From: Escherichia coli
GTDB lineage: Bacteria > Pseudomonadota > Gammaproteobacteria > Enterobacterales > Enterobacteriaceae
Reading direction: 5' to 3' (one strand)
Assembly (NCBI RefSeq): GCF_003334335.1
Contig: NZ_QOWQ01000132.1
Length of the DNA stretch: 998 nt
The notes beneath the pieces are model-generated. The model ran no database searches. It worked only from the letters and a program-made list of their open reading frames with translations, and was not told the origin of the DNA. This document shows positions 1-245 of the stretch, piece after piece (position 1 is the first letter of the stretch; the number at the start of each line of letters is the position of its first letter). A program made the position numbers and the translations under genes.

Positions 1-245
1 TGTTTTGTGTATCCCCGGCGGCCCGGGTCGCGCACACGGGTCTGGCAGGCGAAGAATGGCTGAAAGCCTTCCCGCTGCAGGCTTTCCAGTACGGTGATGG
101 TGGGGATGTACGTATAGTTCTGGCTTCGGGACGTGTGTTTATCTTCCCCGAAAATCCCCGGCACATAGTGCATCAGTTCTTCGTGTGTCAGCGGACGGTC
201 ACGGCGTATCTGGTTCGCATAACCAAAACGACTGGCTAGTCGCAT
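1..245 (-). CDS. DUF932 / UPF0380 family protein (YfjQ/YafZ-like), N-terminal 81 codons; gene continues beyond the left edge
   Basis: Minus-strand ATG at 245..243 is preceded by AAGGAG (257..252) with a 6-nt spacer. The frame is open to position 1. Translation: MRLASRFGYANQIRRDRPLTHEELMHYVPGIFGEDKHTSRSQNYTYIPTITVLESLQREGFQPFFACQTRVRDPGRRGYTKH... From memory this closely resembles the N-termini of E. coli K-12 YfjQ/YafZ (MRLASRFG..IRRDRPLTHEEL..YTYIPTI..LQREGFQPFFACQ.RVRDP); no alignment was computed. The six-frame track omits it only because it runs off the window. Confidence 0.85.
   Translation of the reverse strand, partial: MRLASRFGYANQIRRDRPLTHEELMHYVPGIFGEDKHTSRSQNYTYIPTITVLESLQREGFQPFFACQTRVRDPGRRGYTK

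Follow-up and report, generated by a model that had tools for sequence, protein, structure and literature searches.

Background

The closest described relatives of the gene studied here are yfjQ and yafZ of Escherichia coli K-12, which encode DUF932/UPF0380 proteins of 273 amino acids and belong to the cryptic islands CP4-57 and CP4-6, respectively. Both genes adjoin the YfjP/YkfA GTPase gene upstream and are followed by antirestriction, RadC/JAB and DUF987 genes and by a CbtA-type toxin-antitoxin pair. Another relative, YubP, is encoded on F/IncF plasmids. Here we analysed a stretch of 998 nucleotides of E. coli DNA (RefSeq assembly GCF_003334335.1, contig NZ_QOWQ01000132.1), called the window throughout, which carries the start of a DUF932 gene on the minus strand of its first 245 nucleotides. 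An original prediction made from the letters alone had assigned this fragment to the YfjQ/YafZ family, as a diverged paralogue that marks a CP4-type integrative island.

Conjugative elements' leading regions provide the second context in which such proteins have been described. In a published survey, the YubP/UPF0380/DUF945 proteins constitute family 3 of the leading regions with 4,661 members, at a median position of 1 from the origin of transfer (oriT) and in T-strand orientation, and the DUF905/YubL/YkfF proteins constitute family 2 with 4,709 members, whose median position is 12 (Samuel et al. 2024, PMC11541004, Supplementary file 3). These are the third- and second-largest families, and the DUF932 gene is typically the open reading frame (ORF) beside oriT. 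The anti-restriction label attached to family 3 corresponds to one Foldseek match among the 4,661 members (PMC11541004). Most E. coli genomes also contain DUF932 genes, frequently as several copies. The question of DUF932/YubP function concerns the whole family and had been flagged in the literature already, and it was not revealed by the window; biochemical work on these proteins would close a visible gap in the understanding of plasmid and island establishment in new hosts.

Identity of the DUF932 gene

The minus strand of the window is open from position 245 to the window edge over 81 codons, and its translation, MRLASRFGYANQIRRDRPLTHEELMHYVPGIFGEDKHTSRSQNYTYIPTITVLESLQREGFQPFFACQTRVRDPGRRGYTK, matches the protein WP_001234629.1 exactly. 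The reading frame begins with an ATG at positions 245-243 and is preceded by a strong ribosome-binding site, AAGGAG, at a spacing of 6 nt (Table 1). Residues 36-81 of the fragment align with positions 1-47 of the Pfam model DUF932 (PF06067) at E=2.5e-8, and the complete protein of 272 amino acids, taken from genomes with identical DNA, covers positions 1-227 of the 227 of this model at E=4.5e-52. The family assignment of the original prediction, which had staked its case on a significant DUF932 match, is borne out by these results. Together with the genomic contexts described below, they leave virtually no doubt that the fragment is the start of the DUF932/UPF0380 gene of an Ag43-type (CP4-44-type) cryptic island of E. 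coli.

Comparison with K-12 revealed a clear distance. The fragment shares 62 of its 81 residues with YfjQ (76.5%) and 63 with YafZ (77.8%), while the complete protein is 73.9% and 74.6% identical to them over 272 aligned residues. At the DNA level the window is 73-74% identical to yfjQ and yafZ, within the coding region only. The two motifs that had been singled out as differing from K-12 are indeed present, GYANQ at residues 8-12 and NYTY at residues 43-46, where YfjQ and YafZ carry GAANL and RYTY, and a lineage distinct from the K-12 copies was rightly proposed. Judged by sequence identity, K-12 YfjQ and YafZ (74-78%) and the plasmid-encoded YubP (62-63%) are paralogues of the window gene, and colinear similarity over the full length places the latter in the UPF0380 subfamily that these three proteins represent. 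There is practically no chance that the fragment is a K-12-type copy from CP4-57 or CP4-6, with which it agrees in Pfam family and length class, or a decayed pseudogene, since the identity between YfjQ and YafZ is 97.8% and that to the window protein far lower, the DNA similarity ends with the coding region, the neighbouring IrmA and DUF905 genes are unlike those of yfjQ and yafZ, and the gene is intact at 272 codons for amino acids in every genome context examined, being truncated only by the window edge.

Among broader mobile-element families, phrog_12094 matches the DUF932 protein over its full length (E=8.5e-129). In the conserved beta-sheet core, the protein also shows weak profile similarity to phrog_1221 and to TIGR03299 ('phage/plasmid-like protein'), but it is not a member of the latter: with 18.2 bits it stayed below the curated cut-off of 110.7 (E=0.0012), over residues 84-172 only. 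This sub-threshold hit was also the sole NCBIfam result for the full-length protein, and the three proteins as encoded in the window gave no NCBIfam match.

Genomic distribution and island context

The whole window was compared by megablast with 5,426 complete E. coli genomes. A match was found in 4,448 of them, covering at least 80% of the window in 2,130, and the matching genomes hold it in a median of three places and a maximum of 15. At 99% identity or more, 1,092 records matched; all 30 records listed are 100% identical across the 998 nt and annotated with IrmA family, DUF932 domain-containing and DUF905 family proteins. The window is an exact copy of a RefSeq-annotated sequence that occurs in many genomes of E. 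coli. The 90% cluster that includes the exact DUF932 protein has 18,561 members, and at least 1,000 contigs carry this exact protein. It is the commonest allele and not an unusual one, so the term diverged paralogue, used in the original prediction, holds relative to the K-12 copies but not otherwise.

We examined four genomic contexts, two in E. coli 042 and one each in strains ECONIH4 and 2013C-4538. In all three strains an identical copy of the window lies in one island between a cobU-side fragment and tmaR/yeeA/sbmC, which is the chromosomal site of CP4-44 in K-12. In the direction of transcription, this island encodes a GTPase, Ag43, a YeeR-like protein of 838 amino acids, IrmA, DUF905, DUF932, a KlcA/ArdB-like antirestriction protein, YeeS (JAB/RadC), YeeT (DUF987), CbeA, CbtA and YeeW. 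The content downstream of DUF932 resembles that of CP4-57 and CP4-6. The upstream side differs: in place of the YfjP/YkfA GTPase, the window gene has DUF905 and IrmA next to it, and Ag43 and YeeR precede these.

The island of 042 and CP4-44 of K-12 MG1655 differ by a clean deletion of 3,357 bp in the latter (L001:18827-22183 vs L004:16300-16303), which includes the window and removes the 3′ part of yeeR, irmA, DUF905, DUF932, the antirestriction gene and the 5′ end of yeeS. This deletion accounts for the fusion and overlap of yeeR and yeeS in K-12. K-12 has thus lost the CP4-44 family member to which the window gene corresponds, and because of this loss the gene did not resemble the K-12 sequences to which the original prediction had compared it.

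The second copy of the block in 042 (L019:46169-47166) adjoins cadC and ends in an integrase fragment of 115 nt. It differs from the window at four of the 998 nt (positions 507, 687, 713 and 933) and its DUF932 protein is 98% identical; the difference at position 507 leaves the DUF905 protein unchanged, which bears one accession in both 042 copies.

The neighbours that had been expected downstream of the gene, namely antirestriction, RadC-like and toxin-antitoxin genes, were recovered: antirestriction, RadC/JAB, DUF987 and CbeA/CbtA genes follow DUF932 in all four contexts. The GTPase expected upstream is present in the three contexts at the CP4-44 site, as a YeeP-type protein, but it is separated from DUF932 by Ag43, YeeR, IrmA and DUF905; the stretch around the second 042 copy ended inside agn43. 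By contrast, the proposed search for a nearby integrase and tRNA attachment site turned out negative. In the three contexts at the CP4-44 site, the island lacks an annotated integrase and has no tRNA beside it, and in K-12 the tRNA gene asnV is located about 3.7 kb beyond the annotated end of CP4-44. The cadC-side copy offers its integrase fragment only, with no tRNA in the 4 kb scanned. A P4-type integrase combined with a tRNA or transfer-messenger RNA attachment site, as expected for an integrative CP4-type island, was thus not found. The element is a degenerate remnant, classed as CP4-44-type by synteny with CP4-44 of K-12, and not an active integrative element. The right-arm module conserved in CP4-type islands is present. 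Observation and interpretation in the original prediction were both correct with these qualifications; the DUF932 gene serves as a marker of the island without explaining it.

The left arm of the island (L001:29374-34367; also in L005 and L006) encodes YfjI-family (DUF3987), AlpA-like helix-turn-helix, Hha/YmoA-family and 'inovirus Gp2 family' proteins and no integrase. It is a P4-like backbone that lost its integration module.

Homologues on plasmids and in phage-like contigs

A tblastn search of 72,556 plasmid records with the DUF932 protein returned at least 5,000 matching records, 4,983 of them at 60-80% identity and 4,427 typed as conjugative. In the records that supply a gene name, it is yubP, and the similarity of YubP to the window-type protein extends over 97-99% of the length. 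On the IncF plasmid pB18FEP, yubP adjoins yubQ (encoding an SLT transglycosylase), oriT and traM; beyond yubP follow flmC, psiA, psiB, a ParB-like gene, an ORF of 77 amino acids, ssb, a methylase gene and an antirestriction gene. The plasmid homologues accordingly stand among the first ORFs after oriT and in T-strand orientation. Islands and plasmids share the co-occurrence of DUF932 with DUF905 (YubL/YkfF) and with antirestriction genes of the KlcA/ArdB type: the 77-amino-acid ORF beside ssb (L007:6705-6938) is 46% identical to the DUF905 protein of the window, and the antirestriction proteins of plasmid and island are 28% identical. The position relative to oriT sets them apart. YubP is encoded beside oriT on a transferable replicon, which provides a rationale in terms of early entry, while the window copy is chromosomal and no integrase, relaxase or oriT is annotated in the flanks examined.

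One PLSDB record, NZ_CP141089.1, is 4.94 Mb in size and contains five copies of the exact gene. Evidently a chromosome was deposited here among the plasmids, and this accounts for the few plasmid matches at 99% identity or more.

More distant homologues were found in 5,351 cluster representatives among 1.84 billion (E<=0.001), and five of these, at 37-50% identity, were sampled for their gene neighbourhoods. Four are located in phage-like contigs. A DNA ligase gene (NAD- or ATP-dependent) lies within a few kb and on the same strand in three of the five (L008, L010, L015), accompanied in one case by a thymidylate synthase gene, and in the fourth phage-like contig a PD-(D/E)XK nuclease and an SNF2 helicase are encoded near the DUF932 homologue. 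The fifth homologue lies in a block of ParA, ParB_N, topoisomerase III and methylase genes typical of plasmids and of integrative and conjugative elements. An association between DUF932 and DNA ligase may be recurrent, judging from the five contigs sampled. Homologues of DUF932 are also carried by jumbo phages of enterobacteria and Xanthomonas.

Conserved residues and structure model

Conservation was assessed in an alignment of 98 family members at 36-51% identity to the query, plus YfjQ, using the residue numbers of the 272-amino-acid protein. P29, C123, N125, H140 and G230 are invariant, and S41, T49, G60, Q68, H82, R85, R87, E99, N104, H106, G108, G117, R208, D211, W217, Q224, E225, R245, N257 and W261 are at least 90% conserved. 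Of these positions, P29, S41, T49, G60 and Q68 fall within the 81 residues encoded in the window, where none of the five is altered. With an isoelectric point (pI) of 9.3 and 30 arginines among its 272 residues the protein is basic, and so is most of the family, with a median pI of 9.08 and a pI above 8 in 78 of the 98 members.

An AlphaFold2 model was obtained with a mean predicted local distance difference test score (pLDDT) of 92.4 and a predicted template modelling score (pTM) of 0.89. It predicts two domains, an N-terminal alpha/beta domain and, after it, a helical one; the majority of the conserved polar residues are placed on the sheet of the former, which has about six strands. The beta-sheet region at residues 82-140 carries the conserved His, Arg, Glu, Asn, Cys and His residues, and confidence is lowest around residues 120-130 (pLDDT about 73). 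A Foldseek search of the PDB with the model returned nothing below E=0.1. Matches to RAD52 at E=0.5-2 had TM-scores of about 0.1 at a root-mean-square deviation of about 16 Å and were rejected as meaningless. Sequence searches of the PDB with the single protein and with the 98-sequence profile gave chance-level hits only (MNK1 kinase, E=0.28; kinesin, E=0.44). As modelled, the protein resembles no solved fold and no family of known function.

Proposed function and alternative explanations

Several lines of evidence suggested to us a role in establishment that is exerted on DNA or on a host factor attacking it: the carriage of the family on mobile elements, the homologues next to oriT, the neighbouring genes of DNA metabolism, partition and topoisomerase, the basic character of the protein and the conserved polar patch on one sheet. 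DUF932 proteins would accordingly be entry or establishment factors of mobile elements. The IncF homologue, given its position, would be among the first genes to reach the recipient cell, and the basic, arginine-rich protein would bind or process the incoming or replicating DNA of the element; alternatively, its target would be a host factor that attacks this DNA. The chromosomal island copy would then be an inherited and probably rarely expressed remnant of such a module. Taken as a whole, identity plus proposed mechanism, we consider this to be quite probably the best explanation. The mechanistic part, that DUF932 binds or processes the DNA of the element, or counters a host factor attacking it, during entry and establishment, is put forward tentatively on the basis of charge, conservation and neighbourhood, and the odds are somewhat against it.

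Several observations weigh against this proposal. An experiment assigning a function to any DUF932 protein was not found in the searchable literature (search terms DUF932, PF06067, yfjQ/yafZ, yubP and orf273), and the DUF932/yubP gene goes unmentioned in two recent papers on early conjugation. Because the literature searched assigns no function by experiment, nucleic-acid binding is deduced from two things, charge and gene neighbourhood. The gene order of the island is not colinear with the IncF leading region. Finally, the expression of the island copy seems uncertain, because a terminator-like hairpin lies 48 nt ahead of the DUF932 start and a promoter scan across the whole window detected no sigma-70-like promoter. 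Read-through, an unusual promoter or silence are candidate states of DUF932 transcription.

The strongest alternative, itself rather unlikely, considers DUF932 a dedicated anti-restriction or anti-defence inhibitor that binds a host immune protein, in the manner of KlcA/ArdB, ArdA or anti-CRISPRs, and does not act on DNA. The island gene is located directly upstream of the KlcA/ArdB-like antirestriction gene, and in leading regions, where anti-defence genes show statistical enrichment, the plasmid homologue has a median position of 1. The analogy to KlcA/ArdB is a functional one only: both families are neighbours in the island and enriched in conjugative leading regions, but KlcA/ArdB is the product of a separate neighbouring gene and no sequence or structural relationship to DUF932 was found. 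Neither similarity of DUF932 to a characterised anti-defence protein nor a demonstrated inhibition was found.

Less probable still, and partly overlapping with the proposed establishment role, DUF932 might be an enzyme with a new fold, such as a hydrolase, a nuclease or a modifier of nucleotides or DNA, that uses Cys123, Asn125 and His140 together with His82, Glu99, His106 and Asp107. Across the 98 sequences, in spite of their low identity, each of these polar residues is either invariant or conserved to at least 85-90%, and in the secondary structure of the model they are predicted to lie on consecutive beta-strands. On the other hand, neither the structural nor the profile searches matched the protein to an enzyme family, and the model is least confident just around residues 120-130.

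It appears improbable that DUF932 is a phage-defence or exclusion determinant that serves the host and is carried by resident mobile elements. CP4-type islands do carry defence genes, e.g. AbpAB and RnlAB in CP4-57, and a preprint on Variovorax reported that a DUF932 gene on an integrated plasmid gained high-frequency non-synonymous and start-codon mutations under phage selection. However, these mutations inactivate the gene, which fits an aid to infection rather than a defence, the position beside oriT suggests that the protein acts in the recipient upon entry, and none of the 5,027 PADLOC models matched the DUF932 protein or the DUF905, IrmA and antirestriction proteins.

A more far-reaching version of the establishment role combines several of these elements. 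DUF932 would be a new-fold DNA-binding or DNA-modifying protein with a site formed by the invariant Cys123, Asn125 and His140 and a conserved arginine-rich surface, acting as a first-entering establishment or anti-defence factor of conjugative elements, and the DUF905-DUF932-KlcA/ArdB-RadC block of CP4 islands would be a fossil leading region. We regard this as speculative, with a chance of perhaps one in a few. If it were true, common 'cryptic prophages' of E. coli would descend from, or would still be mobilised as, elements transferred as single strands.

Other features of the window

The 998 nt comprise three genes, all on the minus strand, which encode IrmA, DUF905 and DUF932 (Table 1).

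Table 1. Positions of the genes and putative signals in the 998-nt window
Feature	Position	Strand	Evidence
DUF932/UPF0380 gene, 5′ end (81 codons + 2 bases of the gene for 272 amino acids)	1..245	minus	translation, Pfam, RefSeq identity; truncated by the window edge
Shine-Dalgarno sequence AAGGAG of DUF932	252..257	minus	direct sequence reading, folded leader
Terminator-like hairpin, 13 pairs, loop 4, then TTTCATTTAT	294..323	minus	terminator scan and RNA fold
DUF905 gene, complete, 77 amino acids, WP_001119729.1 'Aec70'	345..578	minus	ORF list, translation, RefSeq annotation
Terminator-like hairpin, 12 pairs, loop 5, then TTTTATTTAT	604..632	minus	terminator scan and RNA fold
IrmA-family gene, 3′ part (113 codons + stop), WP_000581504.1 'Aec69'	657..998	minus	translation, RefSeq annotation, cluster names; truncated by the window edge

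Two terminator-like hairpins flank DUF905 on both sides and have similar T-rich tails (GGCTTTTTCATTTAT, GGCTTTTTATTTAT). One lies right past the DUF905 stop codon, and the spacer that contains it (246-344) folds at -24.5 kcal/mol with z=-3.8 relative to shuffled sequences; the other is placed right past the irmA stop codon, in a spacer (579-656) that folds at -27.4 kcal/mol with z=-4.2. Since these hairpins bracket DUF905, each of the small genes looks transcriptionally insulated. Both are among the top three terminator candidates on the minus strand of the 11.6-kb stretch from the GTPase gene to YeeW, the third being located between the GTPase gene and agn43.

Two kinds of candidate features were discarded. 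A match to the Rfam family 'hya RNA' at positions 384-449 scored 20.5 bits against a gathering score of 56.8 and was dismissed as a chance hit, and the plus-strand ORFs of 30, 34 and 20 amino acids over positions 1-245 were treated as spurious, being antisense to the gene that matches DUF932.

The relatives of the DUF905 protein are YkfF and YubL, and it matches phrog_8779 at E=1.9e-9. The older names Aec69 and Aec70 are borne by the exact IrmA and DUF905 proteins, respectively. The irmA gene and its island have been covered in published work, in which the allele irmA_2244 was described as silent, its transcription being driven by a separate promoter located downstream of yeeR (Bernabeu et al., PMC9431211). 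The IrmA part of the window is identical to the copy at 2.34 Mb in strain 042, which apparently is this irmA_2244 allele.
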